Assembly: GCA_963663475.2 (NCBI GenBank)
Contig: CAXXJV010000001.1
Span: 1,728,001-1,792,000, forward strand
Direction: 5' to 3'
DNA length: 64,000 nt
Source: Candidatus Cloacimonadales bacterium
Lineage (GTDB): Bacteria; Cloacimonadota; Cloacimonadia; Cloacimonadales; JAFGVF01
The translations under genes were made by a program, and so were the position numbers. The notes beneath the pieces were generated by a model that worked only from the letters and a program-made list of their open reading frames with translations, had not been told where the DNA came from and made no database searches. The first letter of the stretch is position 1; each line of letters begins with the position of its first letter. Positions 1,837-32,189 of this stretch are shown here, piece by piece.

Positions 1837-2640
1837 ATGAAAAAAGTCATGCTTATCAGAATACTAATTCTCGCTTTCATAGCTCTTGCTAGCTTTACTG
1901 CTATAGCTTTAGAAAGATTTGGAGTTATCAATATTAACCCTCACTCTCTTTGTCCTTACTCACTTATTTGTTTTGGTATTCCAAGTCTAAGAGGATTCTT
2001 TTCAGCAAACCCTTTCTATATAGCTACTTTAATTGGACTGATAATCTTAGGCCTAAGTCCTTTCTTAGGAAGGATATTTTGTGGCTGGATATGTCCTATA
2101 GGTGCTATTCAAGAGGTCTTATATAGGCTAGGTAATGGCCAGTTAAAAGGAAGAAAGAAGTATCTAATAAGAGCTAAATGGGATAAGATTTTAAAGAAAC
2201 TAAAATATCTAGTATTAGTAATGAATATTATTCTAGCAACTTTACTCATTCAAGCTCTATATATGGCAGCTTGTCCAGTTATTGCTCTAGCTAATATTGC
2301 TACTTATTTGATAATATCTGCTATCATTCTTTTCGTTTTCTTGCTAGCCTCTCTTTTTATAGAGAGATTTGCTTGTCGCTATCTCTGTCCCTTTGGGGCA
2401 ATGATGAGTTTAATGCTTAAACTAGGAAATAAGCTAAAAATCCCAAGATTAATGCTTAAAATCAATAAAGAAATGTGTGTTAACTGCGAGTTATGTTCAT
2501 CAAACTGTCCTATGCAAATAGATGTTGATGAAAAATCAAAGGTTGCTGATAGTGAATGTATAATGTGTTTTAGATGTAAGGCAAAATGCCCTCGAAAGGG
2601 TATTGATTGTGAATTCTGTAATGATAAGGATAAGAAATGA
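1837..2640 (+). CDS. Membrane 4Fe-4S-binding protein (NapH/MauN/RdxA-like)
   Basis: About 5 TM segments, FCGWICPIG and ACRYLCPFG motifs, two C-terminal CxxCxxCxxxCP motifs. Confidence 0.85.
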
Positions 2641-2957
2641 AAAAATCAAAGATAATTATTATATTTATTGTTATTGCAATTTTTATTACATCCCTAATTG
2701 CTAAGAGAGATGTTGATTTAACTTCTTACAATATCAATCAATATAAGTGTATTGGTTGTCAGGCTTGTCTTGCTGCTTGTCCTGTTCAGGCTATTTCTTT
2801 AAGGAATGGTAAGGCGGTAATAGATCAATCCAAATGTATCCAATGTGGTATCTGTGTGAATGGTAATTACGCTGATTATCAAGGGTGTCCTGTGAAAGCA
2901 ATCAATCTTCCCATTGCAGAAGAAAGTTTATCAAATCAAACAGAAGTAGATCAATAA
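2637..2957 (+). CDS. 2x[4Fe-4S] ferredoxin with N-terminal signal peptide/anchor
   Basis: MKK plus hydrophobic stretch ending [16 protein letters not shown] and CIQCGIC-x10-CP; ATGA overlap with upstream gene. Confidence 0.85.
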
Positions 2958-7950: not shown

Positions 7951-7988
7951 TTGCTTGTAGTTATAATAATTTCACTTAGGAGGTGGAT

Positions 7989-10900
7989 ATGCTTATGCAC
8001 AATAAGAAAAAATGCTATTTTCTTATACTTTATTTACTTATATTTAACTTGTCTTTGTTCGCTAATTTACCAAGTTTAGACATTGAGGCTGAGGTAGAAT
8101 TTTCTGTTAATCCAGAAAGATTCATTTTTAACAGAACAAGCACTTCTAGCTTTACCTTAGAAAATTTCACATTCAATACTAATACAACTGAATACAATTA
8201 TTCTACATTCTATCCTGCGGATTCACTAAAAATAACCTTTCCTTCTGCAGGTAATTATCAATTAGAAACTACTTTCTATGGCTCAATTTCAGGTAATCAA
8301 ACAACATTCATACAAGCTTTAGTAAATGGCTGCATTTGTGTTCCTTTGATAGAAGCTGAATCTTCTACAGGAATGGATGGAAATGGTAATCCAAATGCTA
8401 ATACTAACAGTAATGTACTAACTATAGTTTCTGATCCAGGGGAAGCTAATGAAAAAATATATACATTGCGTTTCAGACGCAGAGCTGACACTGAACCTAC
8501 AACAATTGTTATTTCAGAAACAGCTTATGAGTTCTCTGCCTTAGTTACTGGTGTAAGCTCGATTATTAATGGTGATAATATTGCTTCTTTACAAGAAACA
8601 AATTGGAGTGTAAACCCAATCACAGGAACAGCCTATTTTAATGGAAACCAGCTTATCCCCCTAAGTAATGGAGATGTTACTGTTACAGCAACTTTAGAAA
8701 ACGATAATAGTATTTCTGCAGTATCTGAAACTTATACTCTCAGTGGGATTTCTAATTGGTCTCCTCATTTAAGTAGTTTAGAGCTAATAGACAAATATGA
8801 TGTAAATATTAACTTATCTCCTCAATTCACTTCCAACCCCAATGATGCAGGGGACTATACTTGCAGTATTGTTGATGAATATTCTACTTTGAGACTCAAA
8901 CTTAAGGCACCTGTTGATTGTCAAGTTTACATAGATGATGCTAGAGTTTCCTCTAACGGTTGTAGTTATCTCAAAATTCCACCGACTGATCCTATAAACG
9001 GTCCTCTTTATATAAACTATGTAATCAAAGTAGAAAACTCTCAAGGTGCAAAATCTTATAATTTAAATATTCAGCGTGAAGTGAAAGAGAGGTTAAAATA
9101 TGGTAGAACAAGTGGAAATCCTCCCCATCTAGCTTCTGCGATTGGAGACGTATTTGGTTTTAATACTGTTCAAACTGATAAGTTTTCAATTCAGGCTTGG
9201 GTTCGGTGGACCTCTGAAACTTCAGAAGGGCAACCTTGGGCAAATATAGCGTCACAGACCTATTCTTCAAGTGGTTCTAATGGAACTTTTTGGCTTCAAC
9301 ATAACTACAATAATACATCATTTGAGTTTGCTATTAATCCGACTGGAACAAGAAGATATGTTCTTTCAGATGCTAGCAAAGTGACTATTCAAAGAGGTGT
9401 CTGGTATTTAGTCACAGGTGTTTATGATGGTGACCGTTCTCCTGTAAGAATTTATATCAATGATGATGATGTTTCTGATAGAGGTGTTTATACTGAGGGA
9501 CAAGTTTTAGCTCCTGATGCTTCTGCAGCCTATAATTTCAATGTTGGTAAAATGCCTTATGGAGGAAGACAATTCCCTGGGAATATCAGAAATCTACGCA
9601 TTTGGGTTGAAAAAGCTCTCACTGCAACTGAGATAGCAAATGATTTTCCTAATACTCCTTTAGCAGGTTCTAGTGAAGATGATTCAGATTTCTCATGGCC
9701 ACTTAACGAGATATCTAACGGTTCTATATCAAATGGAAATGGTTCACTAAATTTATCAATGGTTGACGTCCAAGAAGATGACTTCGTAGCCTGTTGTACA
9801 AATAATAGAGCTTCTGGAAAAGCCTTAGTCCATAGACCAGAAAAAATGGACTTAAGCTCGGCAACTTCTGAGTCAGTGATTCTCTTTCAAGCAGATGGTT
9901 ATAGTGGAAATAATTTTAAATTCAATATTTTAGGTCCTTTAGAGAATGCAAGTAAGAGTATGGAAGTTTGGGACCATAATTCTAATAGTTGGAAAACTAG
10001 TGATGTAATATCAGAGGGAATAGCCATAGATTCTGAGCTTGGTAACCCAACAACTGGAACTTATTTTTGGATTCCAGTTCGTCTAGCTACTAGTACAGAT
10101 GGAGCTGGACGTTATGTAGATGATGACGATGACGATGACTACGATGGTAACGACACAGATGCTCAAGGAAGAACACAATACAATACTATGCTACCCCTAC
10201 CAACAGTCGCACCAATGAATGATCCTTTTACAGTTTCAGGGACTCTTATCGGTAATGAACAACACCCGTTAACAGAGAAATATGTCATATTAGGTTATGA
10301 TGCAGTTGAAAAAGGTAGATTAATAACTGGAACCTCAACATTAACAGCTTCTAAGGATGGCAAATCTAATGGTTCATATACATTAGTTAGTGATGTTCCT
10401 TTATATAGAGTAGAAGTTAGAACCCAAGATGATATTCTTGTTACCGATGTAGATAATGCAGAAGGATGGGACGAAACTCTAGAAAATGGTGGAGTTATTA
10501 ATCTAGACCCAATAACCCTCCCAGTTGAATTAAGCTCTTTCACAGTATCAGCTATCTCAAACGGTGCTAAGCTACAGTGGGTGACTCAAACTGAAAGTAA
10601 TATTTCAGGATATCATGTATATAGAGCTTTAGTTGAAGACTTCTCTCAATCTGAATTAGTTTCTCCAGTTATTGAATCTAATAATTCAGTTCAGACTCAG
10701 ATTTATTCATATACTGATAGTGATATAATGCTGAATGTTGATTATTATTACTGGTTAAAAGCTACTGAGTTTAGTGGAGAATTTCGAATTTATGGCCCCG
10801 TAAGTATTTTTCTTGAAGAAAATGAAGTTACACCTGAAGTCCCAATTTTCATCACTGGTATTGAGAGTTTATATCCTAATCCTTTTAATCCGCAAGTTAA

Positions 10901-11111
10901 TATACGTTATAGTTTAAAAGATAAGGGAAATGTAAGGATATCAATATACAATCTTAAAGGGCAAAAAATTCATCGGGATGAAATTATATCTCAAGAAAAA
11001 GGTTATCATAGTTATGTTTGGGATGGACGCAAACAAACTTCTGGTATCTACTTCGTAGAGTTTGTCAGTGGAAAATATAAAGAAGTTCGAAAAGTAACTT
11101 TAAGAAAATAA
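7989..11111 (+). CDS. Large secreted protein with Ig/cadherin-like, LamG-like and T9SS-type C-terminal sorting domains
   Basis: Signal peptide; FSIQAWVRW...WYLVTGVYDG (LamG); TLPVELSSF motif; YPNPFNP...IYNLKGQ...SGIYF CTD. ATG at 7989 fits the RBS (ORF track starts at 7983). Confidence 0.8.
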   Translation: MLMHNKKKCYFLILYLLIFNLSLFANLPSLDIEAEVEFSVNPERFIFNRTSTSSFTLENFTFNTNTTEYNYSTFYPADSLKITFPSAGNYQLETTFYGSISGNQTTFIQALVNGCICVPLIEAESSTGMDGNGNPNANTNSNVLTIVSDPGEANEKIYTLRFRRRADTEPTTIVISETAYEFSALVTGVSSIINGDNIASLQETNWSVNPITGTAYFNGNQLIPLSNGDVTVTATLENDNSISAVSETYTLSGISNWSPHLSSLELIDKYDVNINLSPQFTSNPNDAGDYTCSIVDEYSTLRLKLKAPVDCQVYIDDARVSSNGCSYLKIPPTDPINGPLYINYVIKVENSQGAKSYNLNIQREVKERLKYGRTSGNPPHLASAIGDVFGFNTVQTDKFSIQAWVRWTSETSEGQPWANIASQTYSSSGSNGTFWLQHNYNNTSFEFAINPTGTRRYVLSDASKVTIQRGVWYLVTGVYDGDRSPVRIYINDDDVSDRGVYTEGQVLAPDASAAYNFNVGKMPYGGRQFPGNIRNLRIWVEKALTATEIANDFPNTPLAGSSEDDSDFSWPLNEISNGSISNGNGSLNLSMVDVQEDDFVACCTNNRASGKALVHRPEKMDLSSATSESVILFQADGYSGNNFKFNILGPLENASKSMEVWDHNSNSWKTSDVISEGIAIDSELGNPTTGTYFWIPVRLATSTDGAGRYVDDDDDDDYDGNDTDAQGRTQYNTMLPLPTVAPMNDPFTVSGTLIGNEQHPLTEKYVILGYDAVEKGRLITGTSTLTASKDGKSNGSYTLVSDVPLYRVEVRTQDDILVTDVDNAEGWDETLENGGVINLDPITLPVELSSFTVSAISNGAKLQWVTQTESNISGYHVYRALVEDFSQSELVSPVIESNNSVQTQIYSYTDSDIMLNVDYYYWLKATEFSGEFRIYGPVSIFLEENEVTPEVPIFITGIESLYPNPFNPQVNIRYSLKDKGNVRISIYNLKGQKIHRDEIISQEKGYHSYVWDGRKQTSGIYFVEFVSGKYKEVRKVTLRK

Positions 11112-16975: not shown

Positions 16976-18448
16976 ATGAAAAATAAATTAAACTTAATCT
17001 TACTATTTGCTTTTGTAGCTTTGTTTGGACAAAGTCCAGACCAATTAGCCAGTAGATTTTATCAGATATCAGACCAATATGATGCAATAGGAGCTTCCTA
17101 CTGTTTAGTAACTGGAGATCAGATATACAACTATTCTTATGGTTGGAAAGATTATGATAGACAGCTCAGAATTGATAGTGATACAAAATTTAGAATAGCT
17201 TCTATCTCAAAAATTGTTACTGCTCTTGCCGCTATGAAGCTTGTTGAGAATAATCTTGTAGATTTAGATAGTGATGTTTCTTCTTATTTGGGATTTACTC
17301 TAAGAAATCCAAACTTCCCAGATAATCAAATAACCCTAAGACACCTGCTTACACATACTTCTGGCTTAAGAGATAGTAATGCTTACACAAATTTCATAAG
17401 TCAATCTTACTCTCAAACCCCCCCTGCTATATCTCAACTGCTAATGACAAGTGGTAGCTTTTATAATTCTTCTATTTGGACAAGTTATTATGAACCTGGC
17501 CAAGCAAGTGGTTGGGATTACTCTAACCTGGCTGCTGGACTTGTAGCAACTTTAGTTGAAAATGTTGCTCAAGAACATTTCTCTACTTATGTTCAAGATA
17601 ATTTCTTGAATCCTTTGGGGATTGAAGCCTGTTGGAATAACTTTTCTGCCTTAAGTGATATAAATGATTTAGCTGTCTTATACAGATACGTAGGTGGTCA
17701 GCCTAGTCCTCAAGCAGATAATTATCAAGGTGTCTATCCTGAAGAGATTGATTTAAATCAAATACCTTTTGGCTGGAATGGTTTAATCTATGCCCCTCAA
17801 GGTGGATTAAGGATTAGTACTAGTGACCTAGCTAAAATATTCATGATGATGCGGGATAGAGGGTCTTATAATGGGCAAGTTATCCTAGAAGAAGCTACAA
17901 TCAATCAGATGGAAGACTTAAATTGGACAGGTTCAGGTTTAGGAGGTTTCTTTACTCAAATGGGCTTGCAACTTCAAAGAACTTATGACCTTTTCCCTAA
18001 TGAACTATTCTTTGGTCATGCAGGGGAAGCTTATGGTTTAATTAGTGATGCTTATTATAACCTAGAAAGAGATATTATCTTAGTCTTTCTTACTAATGGT
18101 GGAAATTATTCTTATGGAAACCTATTTTATGATTATGAAGAATCTATCTTCTCAGCTACTAAAGAATGGTTGGATGCTGTTTCTAATAATAACCAAGTTA
18201 TTGCTAATGAGGATGTTAATATTTACCCTAACATTATTAATTCTCTTGATCAGAAAATCTCAGTTTCTACTAAGGATAAGCTTTCTTATATGGCTCTATA
18301 TAACTTAAAAGGACAGTTAATTAAGAGATTTACTAATCCCAAAAAGGAAATTTCTCTTAAGCAAACAAGGTTGGGAAGTGGTTTTTATATTCTTAAAATT
18401 GCTAGTGGGAATAAAATATTCACCAGGAAACTGATAATAAAAAAATAA
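16976..18448 (+). CDS. Serine hydrolase (beta-lactamase/PBP-like) with T9SS-type CTD
   Basis: ASISK (SxxK), LLTHTSG, YSN and GHAG motifs; IYPN...YNLKGQ...SGFYILK tail. Confidence 0.88.
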   Translation: MKNKLNLILLFAFVALFGQSPDQLASRFYQISDQYDAIGASYCLVTGDQIYNYSYGWKDYDRQLRIDSDTKFRIASISKIVTALAAMKLVENNLVDLDSDVSSYLGFTLRNPNFPDNQITLRHLLTHTSGLRDSNAYTNFISQSYSQTPPAISQLLMTSGSFYNSSIWTSYYEPGQASGWDYSNLAAGLVATLVENVAQEHFSTYVQDNFLNPLGIEACWNNFSALSDINDLAVLYRYVGGQPSPQADNYQGVYPEEIDLNQIPFGWNGLIYAPQGGLRISTSDLAKIFMMMRDRGSYNGQVILEEATINQMEDLNWTGSGLGGFFTQMGLQLQRTYDLFPNELFFGHAGEAYGLISDAYYNLERDIILVFLTNGGNYSYGNLFYDYEESIFSATKEWLDAVSNNNQVIANEDVNIYPNIINSLDQKISVSTKDKLSYMALYNLKGQLIKRFTNPKKEISLKQTRLGSGFYILKIASGNKIFTRKLIIKK

Positions 18449-18524: not shown

Positions 18525-20987
18525 ATGAAAAAGTTAATCATTAAAATAAATGGTATGTCCTGTGCTTCTTGTTCTGCCACTATTGAAAGGGCATTAAAGA
18601 AAGTTGAAGGTCTGATTGATGTAAATGTTAACTATCCTGCAGGTAAGGCTTTTGTTACTTATGAACCTGAAAGAATTGATGTTTCTTATATTGAAGAATT
18701 AATTACCAAGGTAGGTTATGATGTTGTTGAATCTTATGATCCTGAAGCAAATCAAACTAGTGTAAATACCATCAAATTAAACGTGACAGGAATGTCCTGT
18801 GCCTCTTGCTCTTCAGCTGTAGAAAGAACACTAAAAAAGACTTGTGGGGTTAAGGCAGTTAATGTAAATTTAGCTTCTGAAATTGCAACAATCCAAATAG
18901 ATTCAAATCTTACAAATGAAAAAGCTCTAAAAGAAGCGGTTATCAATGCAGGCTATGGTATTCAAACAGAGAAGGCTCTAGATAATGAAGCAGAAAACTT
19001 GCAAGCTGCTAAAAAGAGGATGATAATAATTTGGGCTGTTACTCTTCCCATTATGGTTTGGATGATTCCTATGATGCTTTTCGGAATAATGTGGCCTGAT
19101 CATATAACTCACAATATCGGAGTACTTCTTCTCGCCTCTATAGGCCTGTTTACTGTTGGGATGAAGACTTTTAAATCAGCTTTTAAATCTCTAATTCATG
19201 CTTCTGCAAATATGGATGTTTTGATTACTCTAGGAACAGGTGCTGCTTATATAACAGGATTTCTTCACTTCTTTATGGATATTGCTTCTTTTGCAGGAAT
19301 CTCAGCAATGATAATGGCTTTTCACCTCACTGGAAGATATATTGAAGTAAAAGCAAAAGGACGAGCTTCTCAAGCAATTAAGAAATTATTAGAGCTGGGG
19401 GCTAAAACTGCTCTAATTGAAGAGGATGGTCAAGAAAAAGAAGTTCCTGTAGAATCATTAGAGTTAGGCCAAATTATGCTAGTAAAACCAGGATCAAAGA
19501 TACCTACTGATGGACAAATAGTAGAGGGGGCAACAAGTATTGATGAATCAATGGCTACTGGAGAATCTTTTCCAGTTAAAAAAGTTATTGGAGATAATGT
19601 CTTAGGTGCTACAATTAATCAGAATGGTTTTATCAAAGTTAGGGTTGAGAAAATAGGCAAAGAGACTTTTTTATCACAAATTATCAAAATGGTTGAAGAG
19701 GCTCAAGGTTCAAAAGTACCTATTCAAGAGTTTGCTGATAAAGTGACTGCTTTTTTCGTTCCTATCGTGATTTTACTAGCTCTTATAGCTTTTGCCAGCT
19801 GGTTAATTTTTCCTGATACTCTACAAGCAATCAGTCTTTGGGCCTCCCAATATCTTGCTTGGGTTAATCCTCAAGCAAATTCACTAACTCAGGCTATTTT
19901 TGCCACTGTTGCAGTACTTGTTATCGCTTGTCCATGTGCCTTAGGCCTAGCAACTCCAACAGCTCTGATGGTTGGTTCTGGTATGGGAGCTGAAAATGGT
20001 ATTCTGATCAGAAATGGAGCTGCTATCCAGACTATGAAAGATGTTGCTGTAATAGTGTTTGATAAAACAGGTACTATTACCAAAGGCAAACCTGAAGTAA
20101 CTGATATTTATTCTAATTCATTAAGTGAAACACAAGTTATGCAATTAGCTGCTAGCTTAGAAAGTAGGTCAGAACATCCCCTAGCAAGAGCTATGATAAA
20201 TTATTGTAAGACAAAAAATATCAGTTTTGAACAAGCAAAAGCTTTTGCATCCCATTCAGGATTAGGTTTGAGTGGACAAGTTAAAGATAAGAAAATCTTT
20301 TTAGGAAATAGGAAACTTCTAGAAGAACATGCTATTGATTATCAGAATTATGCTGATAGAATTGATAAACTTGAGAAAGAAGCTAAAACGGTAATTTTGC
20401 TAGCTGATGAGAAAGAGATGCTAGCTTTAATAGCAGTTGCAGATGCCCTTAAAGAAGATTCAGGAATGGCAATTGCTAGATTACATAAACTGGGATTTAA
20501 AACAGCTATGATTTCTGGCGATAATGATAAGACTGCTCAGGCTATAGCTAAAAAGGTAGGTATAGATTTTGTAGCCTCACAAGTTTTACCAGACCAAAAA
20601 GTAGAAGAGATTAAAAAATTTCAAGAAAAATATGGTTTGGTAGCAATGGTTGGAGATGGTATAAACGATGCACCAGCTTTAAAACAAGCTAATGTTGGAA
20701 TAGCAATTGGAACTGGTACAGATATTGCTATTGAATCATCTGATATTACCTTAGTTAAAGGTTCCTTAATGAGTGTTGTGCAAGCTATTAAACTATCTCA
20801 AGAGACTTTTAAAAAGATTAAACAAAACCTTTTCTGGGCCTTTGCCTATAATCTTATAGCTATTCCTCTAGCTTTCACTGGTATGTTACACCCTGTTATT
20901 GCTGAAATTGCTATGGCTACAAGTTCAATTACCGTTGTAACAAACTCAAATAGACTTAGAAAGAGAAATCTAAATCCGAATTGGTAA
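18525..20987 (+). CDS. copA: Copper-translocating P1B-type ATPase
   Basis: Two GMSCASC HMA domains; TGES, CPC, DKTGT, EHP and GDGIND motifs. Confidence 0.95.
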   Translation: MKKLIIKINGMSCASCSATIERALKKVEGLIDVNVNYPAGKAFVTYEPERIDVSYIEELITKVGYDVVESYDPEANQTSVNTIKLNVTGMSCASCSSAVERTLKKTCGVKAVNVNLASEIATIQIDSNLTNEKALKEAVINAGYGIQTEKALDNEAENLQAAKKRMIIIWAVTLPIMVWMIPMMLFGIMWPDHITHNIGVLLLASIGLFTVGMKTFKSAFKSLIHASANMDVLITLGTGAAYITGFLHFFMDIASFAGISAMIMAFHLTGRYIEVKAKGRASQAIKKLLELGAKTALIEEDGQEKEVPVESLELGQIMLVKPGSKIPTDGQIVEGATSIDESMATGESFPVKKVIGDNVLGATINQNGFIKVRVEKIGKETFLSQIIKMVEEAQGSKVPIQEFADKVTAFFVPIVILLALIAFASWLIFPDTLQAISLWASQYLAWVNPQANSLTQAIFATVAVLVIACPCALGLATPTALMVGSGMGAENGILIRNGAAIQTMKDVAVIVFDKTGTITKGKPEVTDIYSNSLSETQVMQLAASLESRSEHPLARAMINYCKTKNISFEQAKAFASHSGLGLSGQVKDKKIFLGNRKLLEEHAIDYQNYADRIDKLEKEAKTVILLADEKEMLALIAVADALKEDSGMAIARLHKLGFKTAMISGDNDKTAQAIAKKVGIDFVASQVLPDQKVEEIKKFQEKYGLVAMVGDGINDAPALKQANVGIAIGTGTDIAIESSDITLVKGSLMSVVQAIKLSQETFKKIKQNLFWAFAYNLIAIPLAFTGMLHPVIAEIAMATSSITVVTNSNRLRKRNLNPNW

Positions 20988-21058
20988 TAGAAATATAGCC
21001 TAAAATTCAGAAAAATATAATTTTATGGATTTTCCTAACTTATTCTACACTATCTTGG

Positions 21059-21226
21059 TTAAACCCAAATAATGTAGCAGACCTTTGTGAATAGCAGAAT
21101 CTTTTTTGCAAAAGTAAGCTACATTATTTTCAGGAATATATATTATATGCCTTCAAATTCCGTAACTTATTTTGCTAAAAGAATCTAGCACTCTTCATCA
21201 AAGTTCTACTGCACCATTCTGGTTAA
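21059..21226 (+). repeat. Family A copy (preceded by the right end of another copy at ~21043-21062)
   Basis: ttaaacccaaataatgtagcagacctttgtgaa...aaagttctactgcaccattctggttaa. Confidence 0.85.
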
Positions 21227-21419
21227 AAGAATTAATTTTTCTAAATCCTAGTTAAATAATGGGAGATAATGTTAAATAATATCTAGCAAAGTTATAGATA
21301 ATATTGTCATAGTTTGCAATTACTATTTTTAGGGATAGGTTTGTTAAGACTAACTTAATATCTATTGACAAAATTAAGTCCTCCAGTGATTTGTAGATAA
21401 AAAATCAAAGGGAGAAGGG

Positions 21420-21953
21420 ATGAAAAATAAAAAGAGAAATTTAATAATTTTGTTACTTTTGCTAGTTACAGTAACAATGTTAATTTCAGTAGAAGTCAAA
21501 CAACATTGTGGAAAGCATTTTCCTAAAGCAGACCAGGATTCTTTAAGGGTAACTATTACTGGTATTGTGCAATTAAATGAGAACCAGCTCCAGTTAGTTG
21601 AAGATTCAACAAAGGTAGCTTATAATTTAATTATTCCTGAGAATATGGAAAATGAGATGGATAAAATCCAAATGGGCAAGAGATATAATTTTTCTGGTAA
21701 AAATTCTAGGGGTGGCTTAGTGGTTGAGAAGTATAGTCTATGTCAAGGTGATCATAAGGCAGGTAGCCATCATGTAGATCAAGCTAGATGTATAGGTTGT
21801 AGACTTTGTATTAAGCAGTGTCCTGAGGGGGCAATCACAATGGTAAAAGGCAAAGCAGTAATCGATCAAGACAAGTGCATTGATTGTGGTATTTGTGTTG
21901 ATGGTAACGGTAAATTCAAAGGTTGCCCAGTAAAGGCTATAGAAAAGAAATAG
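21420..21953 (+). CDS. Exported protein with small beta domain and C-terminal 2x[4Fe-4S] ferredoxin
   Basis: Signal peptide; CIGCRLCIKQCP and CIDCGIC-x9-CP; paralog of 2637-2957. Confidence 0.85.
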   Translation: MKNKKRNLIILLLLLVTVTMLISVEVKQHCGKHFPKADQDSLRVTITGIVQLNENQLQLVEDSTKVAYNLIIPENMENEMDKIQMGKRYNFSGKNSRGGLVVEKYSLCQGDHKAGSHHVDQARCIGCRLCIKQCPEGAITMVKGKAVIDQDKCIDCGICVDGNGKFKGCPVKAIEKK

Positions 21954-21962
21954 GAGTCATAA

Positions 21963-22499
21963 ATGAAGAAATCAATAATTTTTATTCTTGTTTTAACAAG
22001 TATTATTTTCACTTTATTTGCAGTTTATCAGATTAACTCTATTAGGTGTAATAATTGTGGAAGGTGTTTGAGTACATGTGATGAGGATGCGATCTATTAT
22101 GATGCTAGTCTTCATAGTTATCAAATTGATCCTGATCTTTGTGAGGATTGTGGTGATTGTGCAGATAGGTGCCCTCGTAATGCAATATCTCAAGTTGCAG
22201 TTTCAAATGACTTAGGTGATGTAAATCCTGTTAGTTTAGAAGTTAGTGTTTTTCCTAATCCAACAGCTTCTAGAGCAGTATTTAAAGTAATTTCTCAAGA
22301 CAGAATAAGTTCAAGAGATTTAGTGATATATAATATTAAGGGTCAAAAAGTTAAAGAATTAAAGTTTGACGAGAAGACTAATTCTGTAGGTTGGGATTTA
22401 ACAGATGACTTAGGAAATAGGGTTCCATCAGGTAATTATTTATTTAAATATTCAACAAGTGATAAAGAAATATCAAAACTTTTAACAGTTATAAAATAG
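21963..22499 (+). CDS. 2x[4Fe-4S] ferredoxin with signal peptide and T9SS/FlgD-type C-terminal sorting domain
   Basis: TLFA signal end; CNNCGRCLSTC and CEDCGDCADRCP; VFPNP...IYNIKGQKV...WDLTDDLGNRVPSGNY. Confidence 0.85.
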   Translation: MKKSIIFILVLTSIIFTLFAVYQINSIRCNNCGRCLSTCDEDAIYYDASLHSYQIDPDLCEDCGDCADRCPRNAISQVAVSNDLGDVNPVSLEVSVFPNPTASRAVFKVISQDRISSRDLVIYNIKGQKVKELKFDEKTNSVGWDLTDDLGNRVPSGNYLFKYSTSDKEISKLLTVIK

Positions 22500-22506
22500 G
22501 ATAATC

Positions 22507-22761
22507 ATGAAAAAAAAGCTATTAACTATTTTAGTAATAGCAGTCATATTTTTAGGGTTCCTCTTTGCTTCTGAAGTAGTAGAGAACCCTTTTGTTCGTA
22601 AATATGATTGCGTTGGTTGTGGAGATTGTCTTGATGCTTGCCCAGTTAATGCAATAGAACTTGTAAATGGGAAAGCTGTAATCGATAATGAGAAGTGTAT
22701 TAACTGCAATATTTGTGTTGGGACCTGTACTTATGATGCCATTGAAGGGGGGCAGCAATGA
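22507..22761 (+). CDS. 2x[4Fe-4S] ferredoxin with signal peptide
   Basis: FLFA signal end; CVGCGDCLDACP and CINCNICVGTC. Confidence 0.88.
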   Translation: MKKKLLTILVIAVIFLGFLFASEVVENPFVRKYDCVGCGDCLDACPVNAIELVNGKAVIDNEKCINCNICVGTCTYDAIEGGQQ

Positions 22762-23003
22762 AGAGAGTAATTATTATATTAGTAGCACTTATTATCTTGT
22801 TTACTTTTATTGCCTGTAAGAAACCAACTGAGAAAGAATATGGAATTGATAAATCATCATGTAATTCTTGTGGTGAATGTATTGCTGTCTGCCCAAGTGA
22901 TGCTATAGAGTATAATCTTGAAGGTAAGGCAGTTATTGATCAAAGTAAGTGTACCAGCTGTGGTGAGTGTATAACAGTCTGTCCTCAAGGAGCTATTTAC
23001 TAA
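22758..23003 (+). CDS. 2x[4Fe-4S] ferredoxin lipoprotein
   Basis: FIAC lipobox followed by KK; CNSCGECIAVCP and CTSCGECITVCP. Confidence 0.88.
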   Translation: MKRVIIILVALIILFTFIACKKPTEKEYGIDKSSCNSCGECIAVCPSDAIEYNLEGKAVIDQSKCTSCGECITVCPQGAIY

Positions 23004-24205
23004 TGAAAAAGCTAGTATTAATCTCATTTTTAATATGTATATGTCTATGTTTAAATGCTTCTTATTGGAATCAGACCAGGTTTTCATTCTATAAATCGCA
23101 AGATACTGAAGTATATGGAGCAGAGAATAACTTTGTTTCTGAAATATTACTTAATAAATTAAATATTCAAGTTCAAATGAATTCTTTGCTTTCGGAGGAA
23201 GGCTTTGATGAACCAAATTCATATGTAACTAATGAAATAAGAAGTCTAGCTACCTACACTTATAATCCTCAATCAAAACTTCTTTTAGGGTATAATATTG
23301 ATTATTATGACTATGATAAAACCCAGAGCTCATTTATCTATAATTGGATTAATCTGCCTGTTCAGCCCCTAGTTAAGAATTATCTCTACTTGATTTCAAA
23401 AAATGAATGGGCTAACTTTACTTTACTAGCTGGTCTGAGAGGAAGAGCAACAGGTATTGATTATAAAATTGGTATACCTGATGCAATAAATTCAGCTCAA
23501 GCAGAACATTATGATGAGTTTTATAAAGATATAGCTTTAGCCTACCAACTTAGTAATAATATTGCTATCTACGCTGTCTATGAAAACAAAACTTTCTATA
23601 GTTCGAATACAAATTTTAATGATCCAGGCAGAGATTTTGATTACACCCATTATGGGGGAGGGGTTAATTTTACTTCTAGAGATTTCTTAGGTGGTAAAAT
23701 ATCCGAAGATTTTCAATACTTAAGAAAAGATTCTGAGCAATATGCAGATTATCAAAGACATAACTTTATTAATAAACTAAGATATAGTTATAATATCACA
23801 CCTACTATAAGCTCATTTGTTTCATATATATCAAAGTTCTCTTATGATGATAAGGAAAAAGAGTTCTATCGTTTAGCTAACATGGTCAGAGTTCAAGCAC
23901 GTTATAACCTAGCTAATTCAAATTATAAGGCATTTCTTATAGCTGGAACTAGTTTAAGTCTAGAAAACTTAAATAGAATTTATTTTGCTTATGCAAAATA
24001 TCCACTAAGTAAGTCATTTTCTCTTTCTCTAGAAGATAGGTATAGTCATAATGTATATAATACTATAATTGCATCTTTAGATTATCAGTTAAATTCTAAC
24101 TTCATGGTTTATTTAGAGAACAGTAATTCACAGTCTTTTAGCAATATAAATACTTACGATTTTAAAAACACACTTACAATAGGTACAAGGATGCTTTTTA
24201 GATGA
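23003..24205 (+). CDS. Probable outer-membrane beta-barrel protein
   Basis: TAATG-coupled ATG at 23003; signal peptide ending CLNA; Tyr/Phe-rich alternating strands; C-terminal TLTIGTRMLFR. Confidence 0.7.
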   Translation: MKKLVLISFLICICLCLNASYWNQTRFSFYKSQDTEVYGAENNFVSEILLNKLNIQVQMNSLLSEEGFDEPNSYVTNEIRSLATYTYNPQSKLLLGYNIDYYDYDKTQSSFIYNWINLPVQPLVKNYLYLISKNEWANFTLLAGLRGRATGIDYKIGIPDAINSAQAEHYDEFYKDIALAYQLSNNIAIYAVYENKTFYSSNTNFNDPGRDFDYTHYGGGVNFTSRDFLGGKISEDFQYLRKDSEQYADYQRHNFINKLRYSYNITPTISSFVSYISKFSYDDKEKEFYRLANMVRVQARYNLANSNYKAFLIAGTSLSLENLNRIYFAYAKYPLSKSFSLSLEDRYSHNVYNTIIASLDYQLNSNFMVYLENSNSQSFSNINTYDFKNTLTIGTRMLFR

Positions 24206-25185
24206 TTACCACATTAATTGAAGGTTTTACTCTTGGCTTTTCAACAGGCACTATATGCCTTGTCTCTTGTACTCCTATCTATCTTCCTTACCTTATATCA
24301 GAGAATAGGTCATTTAGTAAAAATATCTGGAAGGTTCTTGAAATATCACTAGGTAGATTTTTCTCTTATATCGTCTTTGGACTCTTAGCAGGCTGGATAG
24401 GTTCTAATATTGCTACTATTAATCGAGACCTCTTTACTGGGATAGCATATAGTCTGCTATCCCTATTTTTAATTCTTAGTGTAATAAGAACTAATAAGAA
24501 AGAAAAGAAGTGTCACATTCCTGCTTTTGCCAAGATAACCTCATCGGCATTTCTACTTGGTGTTTTTACAGGAATCAACTTCTGTCCTTCCTTCTTGATT
24601 GCACTATCTAAAGCAGTTGACTTAGCAGGTCCCATCTCCGGAGCTCTACTATTTTTAGGTTTCTTCTTCGGAACTTCTATTTTCTTAATACCTTTGGCTT
24701 TCTCTGGCTTTTTAGCTTATATAAAAAACTTAAAGTATGTTGCCCAATTAGCCTCTATAGCTATAGCTGTCTGGTTCCTTTTCTCAGCAGGACTTAAGTT
24801 TTATGATGTCTATAAAAGTACTCAAGCCTACTATCTTGATCCTTCAGCAAGCGATTTTCCAATGACACTAATTATTCAAGAAGATAATCAAGCATATTTT
24901 GCTGAATTAGCAGACTCTCTCTTCAATCTCAAAGCAGAGAACTTCGCCCTGCTTACTATTAAATCAGACTCTCTTAAACTGCAAGAAGTGAATAATAGTA
25001 ACTTGATTTATCTTATAGATGCTGATCTAGTGAAAAATCTAGACCATGAAAAACTATCTCAGATACATTATTATGAAGTTGAAGCAGGCTATCCTGTTCC
25101 AGATATTATTCATTTTCTAAAAAATTCGGTTATGAAGCTGAATAGAGATGATAAAATTCACTTCTCTTTTAGCAGAAAACACTAA
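24202..25185 (+). CDS. DsbD/CcdA-like (DsbD_2/TauE-related) membrane protein with soluble C-terminal domain
   Basis: About 6 TMs with GxxCLVSC, GRFFSY and NFCP motifs. Confidence 0.75.
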   Translation: MITTLIEGFTLGFSTGTICLVSCTPIYLPYLISENRSFSKNIWKVLEISLGRFFSYIVFGLLAGWIGSNIATINRDLFTGIAYSLLSLFLILSVIRTNKKEKKCHIPAFAKITSSAFLLGVFTGINFCPSFLIALSKAVDLAGPISGALLFLGFFFGTSIFLIPLAFSGFLAYIKNLKYVAQLASIAIAVWFLFSAGLKFYDVYKSTQAYYLDPSASDFPMTLIIQEDNQAYFAELADSLFNLKAENFALLTIKSDSLKLQEVNNSNLIYLIDADLVKNLDHEKLSQIHYYEVEAGYPVPDIIHFLKNSVMKLNRDDKIHFSFSRKH

Positions 25186-25320
25186 TTTTACAAACATGAA
25201 TAATGACTAATTTAAAGCAAGTAAAGTAGAATATGAAAAAAAAATGCTTTTATAAGTTATTATTAATTAATAAAAAGCAGATTTATTCATAATAAAAATG
25301 AAAATAAATTAAAAAAACTA

Positions 25321-25349
25321 TTGACAGAAAAACCCCTTTATAGGATATT
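25321..25349 (+). promoter_or_regulatory. Promoter of the tRNA cluster
   Basis: A-rich UP-like tract, then TTGACA-17 bp-GATATT, 20 bp before the first tRNA. Confidence 0.55.
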
Positions 25350-25368
25350 GCTAATACATATTTCGAAC

Positions 25369-25454
25369 GGAGAATTAGTCCTAATTGGTAAGGCAGCGGT
25401 CTTGAAAACCGCCGGGCTCTGCCCTTGGGGGTTCGAGTCCCTCATTCTCCGCCA
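25369..25454 (+). tRNA. tRNA-Ser(TGA)
   Basis: Cloverleaf; gcggt-cttgaaa-accgc anticodon arm; long variable arm; GTTCGAG; CCA end. Confidence 0.95.
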
Positions 25455-25463
25455 TTCTTGAAC

Positions 25464-25554
25464 GGAGAGGTGGCCGAGCGGCTTAAGGCGTGCGCCTGCT
25501 AAGCGTATGTAGGCTAATCCCCTACCGAGGGTTCAAATCCCTCCTTCTCCGCCA
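25464..25554 (+). tRNA. tRNA-Ser(GCT)
   Basis: ctgctaa anticodon loop; long variable arm; GTTCAAA; CCA end. Confidence 0.95.
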
Positions 25555-25584
25555 TTAAAAACATAAAAATTTATAAAATAGTGT

Positions 25585-25659
25585 TGGGCTGTCGTCAAGT
25601 GGTAAGACACATGGTTTTGGTCCATGCATTCCCGGGTTCGAATCCTGGCAGCCCAGCCA
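25585..25659 (+). tRNA. tRNA-Gln(TTG)
   Basis: catgg-ttttggt-ccatg anticodon arm; GTTCGAA; CCA end. Confidence 0.95.
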
Positions 25660-25692
25660 TCACTATTTTATAAATTTTTTTTCTGTTTATAC

Positions 25693-25766
25693 TGGGGTAT
25701 AGTCTAATGGTAGGACAGCAGGTTCTGGCTCTGTGTGTCGGGGTTCGATTCCCTGTACCCCAGCCA
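25693..25766 (+). tRNA. tRNA-Gln(CTG)
   Basis: ttctggc anticodon loop; GTTCGAT; CCA end. Confidence 0.93.
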
Positions 25767-29979: not shown

Positions 29980-30708
29980 TTATAGTTTTCCTTTCATTCT
30001 ATAACTATTTCCATCTATTAGAACTGTTTCTGCATGATGAACTAATCTATCTACTATAGCAGTAGTTATTACATTATCTCCAAAGGATTCTCCCCACTCT
30101 TGGAATAGCCTATTAGAGGTAATGATAATAGACCTATATTCATATAACTCATTTATTAGCTTAAAAAATAAACTCGCATTTACTGCCTTAATAGGAAGAT
30201 AGCCTATCTCATCAATAATAATAAGATCATTTTTTACTAACTTTGAAATCCATTTTTTGAAGTTATTTTCTACATTAGCAATAATCATTTCATCAATTAG
30301 GTCATTCATATTGTAAAAAATAACTTTATATCCTTTTAAGATAGCTTCATATCCTAAAGCTATAGATATATGAGTTTTACCTACACCAGGAGGACCCATT
30401 AATATTTTGTTTTCTCTGTTATCTATCCAAGTAAAGTCCTTCCACTCAGTAATCATTCTTTTAGTTATTGAATGCTGATATTTAAAATCAAAATCATCAA
30501 AACTTTTCAAAAGAGGAAATTTTGACCTTCTAATCTGTAAATTTATCATCGTTTGATTTCTACTATTGCATTCATTATCAATTACATATGAAAGAAAATT
30601 CATATAAGATAACTGATTATCTTGTGCATATTTAAGATATGATTCTAAATTATTAATAGTATGCCTGCATCTTAGTCTAAATAGATTTTTCTTTAATGTT
30701 TCGATCAT
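29980..30708 (-). CDS. istB: IS21 helper AAA+ ATPase
   Basis: GPPGVGKTH, IIIDEIGY, TSN, DRLVHH and SYR motifs. Confidence 0.95.
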   Translation of the reverse strand: MIETLKKNLFRLRCRHTINNLESYLKYAQDNQLSYMNFLSYVIDNECNSRNQTMINLQIRRSKFPLLKSFDDFDFKYQHSITKRMITEWKDFTWIDNRENKILMGPPGVGKTHISIALGYEAILKGYKVIFYNMNDLIDEMIIANVENNFKKWISKLVKNDLIIIDEIGYLPIKAVNASLFFKLINELYEYRSIIITSNRLFQEWGESFGDNVITTAIVDRLVHHAETVLIDGNSYRMKGKL

Positions 30709-32189
30709 TTTTTTACCACCTTATTATAAATTGATAAATCTCTCTGTATAACTGATTTTTTTGTTTCTATTATCCCATTGACTTGATTTTGATAGTTAGC
30801 AGATAACTTATTGCCTTTTATCTCTTCTTTGACTATAGACTCTATCTTTGTTGCTTTTATATCTTCTAATTCTAGTGCTTTAGAAATTATGTTTGACCAA
30901 TTTAAGTATTTATTTTTATTATACATTTTTAAAAATGCTAATAGTTGCTCTCTGGGATTTCTGTGATTATGTGCTATGAGTAAATTTAATAAAAGGATTA
31001 TCTTGTCATTATTGGGGAATAGTGAGCAAATATCTTCCTTTATATTATTAATTGTTTTCGAGTAGTCTATGTAATGACATTGAGATATGATAGGTTTTGT
31101 TCTTTCTCTGGAAATCCTATGAGATGCAACTTTTTTTCTACTATTCCTATCTATTATTTCTAAAGTGTCTTCATTTTCTTTAACTATAACTATCTTTTGT
31201 TGATAGATATAAGGAACTGAATATTTGTTACCATTCCATGAGATAAGACCTGTTTTATCTACTTTTCGTGTCTCTGCAATATTCAGGTTATATCTTCTTA
31301 ATAGTTTTTCTTCTTCTTTAAACATTACTATAGGTCTTTCTCTAAGCGTACTGTGGATACGATTATTTACTTCTTCTAACCAGCTTTTTGATTTCAACTT
31401 AACTTCAGATAAACTAGTAAATACTTCACCATCAAGAAAATCATACTTAACTTCTTGAACTTGTCTTTCTACCAACCCTTTACTTTCAGGATCATAACCT
31501 TCACAAACATAAGGACTTATTGTTAGATTATTCATAAATTGAAAAAACTTATTATTATAAGTTACTTCTCGATAAATCTCCTTTATAACGACTAGTTTTG
31601 TTTGATCATAAACCATTGTCTCTGGGATATATCCAAAATATTCAAAGCAATCTTTATGGGCTTGGATGAAGTCTTGAGTCTTATAAGGTCTTGTTTGAAA
31701 ATGTACATATTTCATTCGTGAATAGCAATAGCTAAACACACAAAAGTATATTTTTAACTTGCTCTTATCAGATAAATAGATATTATACTCTCCGGGATCA
31801 ACCTGCATCTGATTTCCTGGTTCATAATTGACAACTCGATAATAACGCTTAGTTGGTTGTATTAAATTATTTTTTATTTTTTTTGAAAAATTAAAAAAAG
31901 CTCTTTGTTTTACAGGTAATTTTCCATGCTGTTTGGATAATTTACGATATAATTTACTTAATCGCATATTAGGAAATTTTGTTAAATGTTTGCTAATTTC
32001 TTCCCTGTAAATTTCGAGCTTACTTGTTCGATTGACTTTCATTAAAGTTTTTTCTACGGTTTCAATGTCTTTTTGTAAGTAACCCATAACTGTTGTTTTA
32101 GAGATACTTAACTGTTCTGCTATTTCTCTTATACTCTTGCCATTTTCTCTTAATACTCTTATTGCGTGATACACTTGGACTCCTTTCAT
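30705..32189 (-). CDS. istA: IS21 DDE transposase
   Basis: N-terminal HTH; PGNQMQVD, YSR, YDQ, SKGLVER, NNRIH and KYSVP motifs. Confidence 0.95.
   Translation of the reverse strand: MKGVQVYHAIRVLRENGKSIREIAEQLSISKTTVMGYLQKDIETVEKTLMKVNRTSKLEIYREEISKHLTKFPNMRLSKLYRKLSKQHGKLPVKQRAFFNFSKKIKNNLIQPTKRYYRVVNYEPGNQMQVDPGEYNIYLSDKSKLKIYFCVFSYCYSRMKYVHFQTRPYKTQDFIQAHKDCFEYFGYIPETMVYDQTKLVVIKEIYREVTYNNKFFQFMNNLTISPYVCEGYDPESKGLVERQVQEVKYDFLDGEVFTSLSEVKLKSKSWLEEVNNRIHSTLRERPIVMFKEEEKLLRRYNLNIAETRKVDKTGLISWNGNKYSVPYIYQQKIVIVKENEDTLEIIDRNSRKKVASHRISRERTKPIISQCHYIDYSKTINNIKEDICSLFPNNDKIILLLNLLIAHNHRNPREQLLAFLKMYNKNKYLNWSNIISKALELEDIKATKIESIVKEEIKGNKLSANYQNQVNGIIETKKSVIQRDLSIYNKVVKK

Follow-up and report, generated by a model that had tools for sequence, protein, structure and literature searches.

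In a 64,000-nucleotide stretch of the genome of a Candidatus Cloacimonadales bacterium (assembly GCA_963663475.2, contig CAXXJV010000001.1, positions 1,728,001 to 1,792,000; here called the window), the gene at 21963-22499, termed Fd-CTD, was found to be the second member of a tight six-gene operon spanning 21420-25185. The encoded protein joins a ferredoxin domain to a C-terminal sorting domain (CTD) belonging to the T9SS, or type IX secretion system. The operon runs in the order FdA, Fd-CTD, Fd3, Fd4, a predicted outer-membrane barrel and a CcdA/DsbD-like membrane protein of the DsbD_2 family, with gaps of 7-9 nucleotides (nt) or stop/start overlaps between the genes, and all four of its ferredoxins bear export signals. 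This operon context, which was missed in the initial annotation of the sequence, is the main finding. We tentatively propose that Fd-CTD may be the terminus, displayed on the cell surface, of an electron conduit that is made of ferredoxins and crosses the envelope, working in the manner of porin-cytochrome complexes. The genome, which belongs to the phylum Cloacimonadota, is 3.3 Mb in size, 99.2% complete and has a GC content of 32%.

The initial annotation had described Fd-CTD as a signal peptide followed by a two-cluster ferredoxin and a T9SS/FlgD-type tail, and this description was borne out by profile searches and by a heuristic examination of the N-terminus. Fer4 matched the protein with 43.5 bits against a Pfam cut-off of 21.1, placing the two-cluster ferredoxin at residues 24-76, and the dicluster model Fer4_7 matched residues 28-74 with 40.3 bits (Pfam cut-off 27). 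The tail exceeded three curated cut-offs, namely Por_Secre_tail PF18962 (residues 96-173, 28.9 bits versus 27, Pfam), FlgD_ig PF13860 (27.6 bits versus 27, Pfam) and the T9SS type A sorting domain TIGR04183 (residues 96-172, 33.4 bits versus 23, E 3.4e-8, NCBIfam), and it forms the extreme C-terminus of the protein. The cluster motifs, two of the form CxxCxxCxxxC, were located at C29-C32-C35-C39 and C60-C63-C66-C70, the last Cys being followed by Pro, and the approximately 30 residues between the motifs fit a clostridial-type ferredoxin. An AGGAG ribosome-binding site was present 8 nt 5' of the start codon. The same tail had also been ascribed to two other proteins of the window, and these matched PF18962 with 44.4 and 30.3 bits and TIGR04183 with 39.1 and 41.9 bits, respectively. 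The one is a 1042-residue Laminin_G_3 protein (7983-11111, + strand) and the other a 490-residue protein of the serine beta-lactamase/penicillin-binding protein family with a CTD (16976-18448, + strand; PF00144, 166.6 bits).

Signal peptides were called by a heuristic of our own, based on the charge of the n-region, the length of the uncharged span and the cut site, together with the conservation of the segment. The N-terminus of Fd-CTD consists of MKK, an uncharged span of 19 residues and the sequence TLFA/VYQIN, with an n-region charge of +2 and no RR motif. They fall inside the range shown by the tail-bearing open reading frames (ORFs) of the genome that have a hydrophobic N-terminus (n=149; median charge +2, median span 16). 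Judged by these features, Fd-CTD likely carries a Sec-type signal peptide that is cut after Ala20. The predicted cleavage puts the mature N-terminus a few residues ahead of the first Cys, and clostridial ferredoxins likewise start a few residues before their first Cys.

The 16 homologues with 53-99% identity were each 178 residues long and retained 8/8 Cys, the MKK start, the hydrophobic segment and the tail motifs. In a wider set of 26 representatives, extending down to 26-43% identity, Fer4 was matched in 26/26, Por_Secre_tail in 23/26 (best match, E 6e-15), FlgD_ig in 21/26 and CarboxypepD_reg in 9/26. Seven of the eight Cys positions were invariant across this set, and C63 was replaced by Asp in 4/26. 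With Asp in the second position of motif 2, these sequences show a known Asp-ligand variant of bona fide ferredoxins. This exchange of Cys for Asp was the sole Cys substitution seen and, as a classic ferredoxin variant, it argues for real clusters; the ferredoxin motif of Fd-CTD is read from these alignments as a real cluster-binding site.

The pairing of domains had been called very unusual, and the database searches agreed with this. Fer4 together with Por_Secre_tail was found in only 30 of the 49 best matches from a database of 5.8 billion clusters, none of them functionally named, and no Atlas cluster of at least 50 members has the pairing. A search of the Atlas with Fd-CTD itself returned CTD fragments only, with scores of 0.85 or less. 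When a genome collection was scanned with Fd-CTD, the matches were driven by CTD peptide patterns and were to other CTD proteins, almost all from Cloacimonadota, with no orthologue loci among them. An exhaustive HMMER search additionally recovered proteins of approximately 260 residues with the arrangement signal-ferredoxin-CarboxypepD_reg-CTD.

The other ferredoxins of the operon are listed in Table 1. Orthologues of FdA occupied the same position at 7/9 loci; its second cluster motif contains an insert (C..C..C-x9-CP), and no family match was obtained for its middle domain of approximately 85 residues. In Fd3, presumed to be periplasmic, 8/8 Cys were invariant in 17/17 orthologues. The lipobox Cys of Fd4 was invariant in 19/19 orthologues, of which 2/19 had CxxD in the second motif. 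The Fd4 gene overlaps its neighbours at both ends, its start lying across the stop of the Fd3 gene by 4 nt and its stop across the start of the barrel gene.

Table 1. Positions in the window of Fd-CTD, its domains and the associated genes
Feature	Position	Strand	Description
Fd-CTD	21963-22499	+	178 aa; open ORF; gene under study
Fd-CTD, signal peptide	21963-22022	+	aa 1-20; predicted
Fd-CTD, ferredoxin domain	22023-22196	+	aa 21-78; 2x[4Fe-4S] type
Fd-CTD, linker		+	aa 79-95
Fd-CTD, sorting domain	22248-22496	+	aa 96-178; T9SS type-A C-terminal sorting domain
FdA	21420-21953	+	177 aa; signal-peptide-like N-terminus, middle domain of ~85 aa, C-terminal ferredoxin; Fer4 48.1 bits
Fd3	22507-22761	+	84 aa; predicted signal peptide (..LFA/SE), then 2x[4Fe-4S] ferredoxin; Fer4 49 bits
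Fd4	22758-23003	+	81 aa; predicted lipoprotein signal (..FIAC/KKP), then 2x[4Fe-4S] ferredoxin; Fer4 63.3 bits
Barrel protein	23003-24205	+	400 aa from ATG at 23003; signal peptide, predicted 20-strand beta-barrel, C-terminal aromatic signal (..MLFR)
DsbD_2 protein	24202-25185	+	327 aa; CcdA/DsbD-like inner-membrane protein; PF13386 DsbD_2 68.1 bits, cut-off 24.9
NapH-like protein	1837-2640	+	267 aa; membrane Fe-S protein; Fer4_5 70.8 bits; TIGR02163 NapH/MauN 82.4 bits, below cut-off of 213
Fifth signal-peptide ferredoxin	2637-2957	+	106 aa; FdA type; Fer4 48.7 bits; overlaps stop of NapH-like gene

Across the five signal-peptide ferredoxins of the window, the n-region charge ranged from +2 to +4 and the uncharged span from 17 to 19 residues, as in the CTD cargo of the genome. 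The membrane anchor of RnfB from the same genome was unlike these: its charge is -1, its span 24 residues, and its helix is followed by KK. Across the whole genome, a ferredoxin motif was combined with a strongly hydrophobic N-terminus (Hmax of approximately 3 or more) in these five ferredoxins and the NapH-like ORF alone, all of them in the window; the ordinary small ferredoxins and RnfB are encoded outside it. A scan of 20900-25700 for promoters and terminators gave 19 sites against a mean of 21.3 in shuffled sequence, and hence no excess. Directly upstream of the operon lies a gene for a CopA-like P-type ATPase with two N-terminal HMA domains (18525-20987, + strand). This adjacency was kept within the genus (loci L112 and L113) and was absent from more distant loci, for which reason an accessory role of the operon in copper resistance was rejected.

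The barrel protein matched no Pfam or NCBIfam family. Its AlphaFold2 model, built from an 18-row alignment, comprised the signal peptide and 20 strands, with a mean predicted local distance difference test score (pLDDT) of 83.5 and a predicted template modelling score (pTM) of 0.71. Foldseek searches with the model pointed to no specific family and found only generic large barrels (TonB-dependent receptors, OccK porins and ushers), while its Atlas features were porin-like. The protein is described here as a predicted plugless 20-strand outer-membrane barrel. Co-prediction of the barrel with Fd4 gave a score of 0.42, compared with 0.01 for the best control; agreement between runs covered at least 64% of contacts, with a partner pLDDT of at least 64. 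The mark set for such predictions was reached by 116/157 solved complexes and 2/215 mismatched pairs, and scores of 0.60 or below comprised 18/157 solved complexes and both of the passing mismatches, so that the predicted barrel-Fd4 complex provides weak support.

The model of the DsbD_2 protein showed six transmembrane (TM) helices and a C-terminal alpha/beta domain at residues 210-327 (pLDDT 79.6). By our own application of the positive-inside rule, this domain would face the periplasm. Four Cys residues were invariant in 17 orthologues, namely C19 and C23 in TM1, C104 in the basic third loop, which is cytoplasmic, and C128 in TM4. As expected of the CcdA/DsbD family, PF13386 was matched over its cut-off and C23 and C128 were present in 17/17. 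The structural match was weak: unrelated helical bundles dominated the Foldseek result, and the CcdA structure 5vkv appeared at rank 44 (prob 0.96, TMt 0.53). The C-terminal domain gave weak flavodoxin-like matches only, and a profile search of the PDB found no solved relative of the DsbD_2 protein by sequence. A role for this CcdA-like gene in cytochrome c maturation was considered and rejected because no multihaem cytochrome ORFs exist in the genome.

The distribution of the module was surveyed over 232 Cloacimonadota genomes. Full-length Fd-CTD was encoded in 15 genomes of four families, down to 32% identity, and in 18 when partial matches at E <= 1e-15 were included. The barrel family was present in 91 genomes, the core of ferredoxins and barrel in at least 91 and the DsbD_2 protein in 93; 57 genomes had both barrel and DsbD_2, 34 the barrel alone, 36 DsbD_2 alone and 105 neither. 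All 15 genomes with full-length Fd-CTD encoded the barrel and 14/15 the DsbD_2 protein. In the remaining one, G164, a NapH-like gene was found in the locus, and Fur-like and FeoB-like ORFs, as judged by eye from their N-termini, follow the barrel gene in the usual position of DsbD_2 (L106:10710-13431). Such iron-uptake neighbours were seen at 1/29 loci examined.

Gene order was conserved alongside gene content. Fd-CTD was directly upstream of Fd3 in 9/9 loci, followed by Fd4, the barrel and usually DsbD_2, and the complete order FdA, Fd-CTD, Fd3, Fd4, barrel, DsbD_2 recurred in loci of four families. At 12 further barrel loci, the series Fd3-Fd4-barrel was present in 12/12 and DsbD_2 was adjacent in 10/12, with Fd-CTD in 0/12. 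Where DsbD_2 had been detected alone, Fd3, Fd4 and a signal-peptide ORF of approximately 380 residues preceded it in 6/8 loci, and the barrel at these six has probably diverged beyond the reach of the profile. In family f6 the DsbD_2 homologue is longer (frames of 455-461 residues), and at the one f6 locus inspected (L126, genome G117) it stood beside an ORF of 1788 residues, away from any ferredoxin genes, so that here the same membrane protein is put to a different use.

In other lineages, the same place in the module was taken by large lipoproteins in which a Fer4 dicluster domain is followed by fn3 repeats. Examples are those at L116:3955-5742, L120:7177-9411, L127:26-3877 and similar loci, which are 600-1283 residues long and carry the Fer4 dicluster at the N-terminus and several fn3 domains. 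Their Cys-rich C-terminus ends in ..VVAY or ..VVSY, and they have the look of a ferredoxin on a stalk. On the evidence of domain architecture, then, one ferredoxin domain is joined to three apparent surface-display designs, these being the CTD, CarboxypepD_reg with CTD, and the Fer4-fn3 lipoprotein. At loci L110, L111 and L121 of genus g14, the module lies directly beside large cytoplasmic oxidoreductase genes, whose products, judged by eye from their N-termini, resemble a xanthine-dehydrogenase-like molybdoenzyme and an Fe-S-domain protein of approximately 830 residues. These neighbours could hint at the electron source.

A separate pair of genes in the window, encoding the NapH-like protein and the fifth signal-peptide ferredoxin, is arranged like NapG and NapH (1837-2957). 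NapH-like ORFs were also found in or beside the module at loci L106, L107, L109, L116, L122 and L128-L131. Elsewhere in the window, two adjoining ORFs of 242 and 494 residues (29980-32189, - strand) had, by eye, the look of an IS21-type helper and transposase.

The genome was also searched for an apparatus that could carry these proteins. SprA was matched with 204.7 bits over the best stretch (cut-off 200) and with 487.2 bits when summed over its frame of 2133 residues, and PorU with 571.6 bits against a cut-off of 420. A hidden Markov model (HMM) built from the genome's own tails detected a C-terminal CTD on 162 ORFs with a median length of 782 residues, of which 150 had a hydrophobic, signal-peptide-like N-terminus; Fd-CTD was the fifth shortest of the 162. 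No TatC of the twin-arginine translocation (Tat) pathway was detected in the genome, despite its completeness of 99.2%, and the export of the ferredoxins is therefore assigned to Sec. Among the 232 genomes, TatC was over the cut-off in 8, and 0/8 of these hold Fd-CTD. No ORF among the 6447 of the genome contained two or more CxxCH motifs, so that a conduit based on cytochromes is not available to this organism.

In the conduit that we tentatively propose, Fd-CTD would be exported by Sec, cut after Ala20 and carried across the outer membrane to the cell surface by virtue of its CTD. Electrons would enter at the inner membrane through the CcdA-like protein, the NapH-like protein or both, pass to the soluble periplasmic ferredoxins FdA and Fd3, and reach the lipoprotein ferredoxin Fd4 at the 20-strand barrel. 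The surface ferredoxin, in the form of a CTD protein, a CarboxypepD_reg-CTD protein or a Fer4 lipoprotein on an fn3 stalk, would be the outermost and accessory member in some lineages. Such a conduit, made from ferredoxins instead of multihaem cytochromes, may allow a fermentative or syntrophic anaerobe without cytochromes to trade electrons of low potential with partner cells or with acceptors outside the cell; we infer both the transfer itself and its direction. The clusters might be assembled in the sulfidic, reducing envelope, either spontaneously or with assistance. A more specific version is rather doubtful, namely that Cloacimonadota, in which TatC and multihaem cytochromes are largely missing by these searches, export apo-ferredoxins via Sec, the lipoprotein pathway and T9SS, and that these receive their [4Fe-4S] clusters outside the cytoplasm, with the CcdA-like protein and its four conserved Cys supplying reductant or even iron or clusters, to form a porin-ferredoxin wire from the inner membrane through the barrel to the surface.

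Several results weigh against this proposal. The T9SS-like apparatus, whose presence elsewhere in the genome the initial annotation had suggested checking, was recovered only in part: SprA and PorU exceeded their cut-offs and 162 ORFs carry the CTD, but the best PorV-like match reached 139.6 bits against a cut-off of 250 and the GldK-like matches were far under theirs (at most 75.2 bits versus 350). The PorL/GldL, PorM/GldM and GldM_1st models gave no match, but no control genome responded to GldL or GldM either, and to GldM_1st one responded only below the cut-off. Outside the window, a frame of 990 residues with weak GldK-like matches of the FGE-sulfatase type (G000:C1:1087897-1088598) lies directly upstream of the SprA gene (C1:1089911-1094245) and may encode a divergent PorK-like component of the T9SS. 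No terminal reductase or oxidase is encoded in the cluster, no acceptor is known, and a surface [4Fe-4S] protein would be very oxygen-sensitive. We know of no mechanism by which an Fe-S cluster is loaded on a protein exported unfolded by Sec, or outside the cytoplasm, and for this reason, together with the failure to find TatC, the holo state outside the cytoplasm is unproven. The barrel-Fd4 prediction is weak (score 0.42). Fd-CTD occurs in only 15-18 of the 232 genomes, compared with at least 91 for the core, which means that the module evidently works without it. Finally, T9SS is experimentally unproven in Cloacimonadota, and a review says only that it is possibly present there too (PMC11285876). 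The earlier suggestion of a surface or extracellular Fe-S electron carrier is supported in respect of extracytoplasmic sorting, through the lipobox, the CarboxypepD_reg-CTD proteins and the Fer4-fn3 lipoproteins; the holo state, the carriage of electrons and a working T9SS would all have to be supposed in addition.

An improbable alternative is that the exported ferredoxin-fold proteins do not carry electrons but serve to capture and process iron, sulfide or entire Fe-S clusters. In a sulfidic habitat short of iron, surface and periplasmic apo-ferredoxins would then bind Fe and S, with the barrel as the way through the outer membrane, and the DsbD_2 protein would move metal or reductant across the inner membrane. 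The four conserved Cys of the latter could equally form a metal site, and the protein belongs to the LysE superfamily, which also includes metal-ion carriers. As no TatC was found, the proteins must leave the cytoplasm as apo-proteins. The neighbouring genes can be read in the same direction, given the Fur-like and FeoB-like ORFs directly after the module in G164 and the CopA-type ATPase directly upstream in this genus, but the former were found at 1/29 loci and the latter only within the genus, whereas NapH-like redox proteins often neighbour the module. An electron carrier would be expected to keep just such features as the full dicluster geometry with its eight Cys, the CP motifs and the exchange of Cys for Asp. 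T9SS type-A cargo is usually tethered or released and not re-imported, which also speaks against a capture function. A precedent for extracellular ferredoxin used as an iron source is given for Pectobacterium in one report (PMC6042079).

It is also possible, though we consider it quite unlikely, that Fd-CTD acts in the manner of NapG and goes no further than the periplasm or the outer face of the inner membrane, with its C-terminal domain serving as an Ig-like fold for docking to the barrel or to another protein, so that there would be no surface ferredoxin. The CTD scores lie just 2-10 bits over the cut-offs, FlgD_ig-type domains also occur outside T9SS, PorL, PorM and PorK were not found at the family level (with silent controls for PorL and PorM), and most genomes have the core module without a CTD protein in it. 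Set against these points, the domain stands at the extreme C-terminus as in the genome's 162 CTD ORFs, 150 of them with signal-peptide-like N-termini, SprA and PorU exceed their cut-offs, and Por_Secre_tail is matched in 23/26 representatives, up to E 6e-15. In other lineages, furthermore, the CTD is replaced by other surface-display designs (fn3 lipoproteins and CarboxypepD_reg with CTD). Very improbable is a third reading, in which the hydrophobic N-terminus is an uncleaved anchor and the ferredoxin is cytoplasmic (N-out, C-in), as in RnfB. It would remove the problem of assembling clusters without Tat, and RnfB of the same genome is indeed so anchored; the n-region charges, spans and xLxA-type cut sites of the exported ferredoxins are those of CTD cargo, however, and differ from RnfB in each respect given above, while the lipobox of Fd4, the T9SS CTD and the fn3 fusions would be senseless in the cytoplasm.

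The conduit proposed here would bear on an open question, namely by what routes, apart from H2 or formate, organisms of this kind that lack cytochromes shed their electrons. In anaerobic digesters and anoxic sediments, Cloacimonadota are abundant as fermenters and syntrophs. A conserved, phylum-wide module of exported ferredoxins and an outer-membrane barrel is a concrete and testable candidate for cytochrome-independent transfer across the envelope. If correct, a porin-ferredoxin wire would open a new way to pass electrons, at the potential of ferredoxin, out of the cell or between species; no earlier case of Fe-S proteins maturing outside the cytoplasm would precede it, and T9SS cargo as known so far would gain a redox cofactor protein. 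According to the textbook rule, Fe-S proteins have to be folded before Tat exports them, and this rule is challenged in either case, as either the clusters are assembled outside the cytoplasm or the ferredoxin folds act otherwise there, and both outcomes would be new. The homologues in databases bear automatic names only, and neither this system nor ferredoxins of such a kind, exported or extracellular, were found described in the literature covered, which excluded subscription journals. The metabolism of Cloacimonadota has been described in terms of Rnf and hydrogenases, with no mention of such a system in the available text of that study (PMC8542988).

When compared with known systems, the DsbD_2 protein resembles the CcdA/DsbD carriers in its match to PF13386, its six TM helices, its conserved Cys in TM1 and TM4 and its likeness to 5vkv. 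It differs from them in the additional conserved C19 and C104 and in a Cys-free C-terminal alpha/beta domain, and in this genome there are no c-type cytochromes to mature; its partners appear to be ferredoxins. The NapG/NosG/MauM proteins with NapH offer a further parallel, as here too an extracytoplasmic ferredoxin is paired with a NapH-type membrane Fe-S protein, both at 1837-2957 and in many modules. NapG-type proteins have four clusters and twin-arginine signals, whereas the ferredoxins described here have two clusters and Sec-type, lipoprotein or T9SS signals. Fd-CTD was not assigned to the NapG/NapH group, as it has no RR and two motifs only, TatC was not found and the NapH-like ORF scored 82.4 versus 213 bits.

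With the T9SS type-A cargo of Bacteroidota, Fd-CTD shares an N-terminal Sec signal and a C-terminal beta-sandwich over both curated cut-offs, in a genome that encodes SprA and PorU. Known T9SS cargo consists mostly of hydrolases, adhesins and motility proteins, in contrast to the Fe-S redox protein of approximately 75 residues that is the cargo here; the phylum is also another one, and the PorL/M motor was not detected (with silent controls). That an Fe-S subunit can work at the outer membrane has a precedent in the extracellular DMSO reductase DmsEFAB of Shewanella oneidensis, where DmsB does so, anchored by the barrel protein DmsF (PMC11302344). DmsB is the subunit of a molybdoenzyme fed by a decahaem cytochrome, whereas the present module has neither a catalytic subunit nor a cytochrome, and TatC was not found. 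DmsB leaves the cytoplasm folded via Tat and then uses the type II system.

The closest comparison in terms of working is with the porin-cytochrome conduits, such as OmbB-OmaB-OmcB of Geobacter and MtrCAB of Shewanella. Because no ORF of the genome has two or more CxxCH motifs, the module is not a member of this group and the likeness is in working only. The redox proteins here are 2x[4Fe-4S] ferredoxins of 6-9 kDa and not multihaem c-type cytochromes, no sequence relationship was found, and the surface component carries the sorting signal of T9SS. In both arrangements, the genes for an outer-membrane barrel and for two kinds of redox protein, one periplasmic and one of the surface or outer membrane, are clustered. 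OmbB is predicted to have 20 strands and the porin-cytochrome barrels 18-22 (PMC4282303); the barrel described here, with 20 strands in its model, falls within that range, as it does within the 18-28 strands taken as the mark of such conduits, and its gene adjoins the cluster of Fd3, Fd4 and Fd-CTD.

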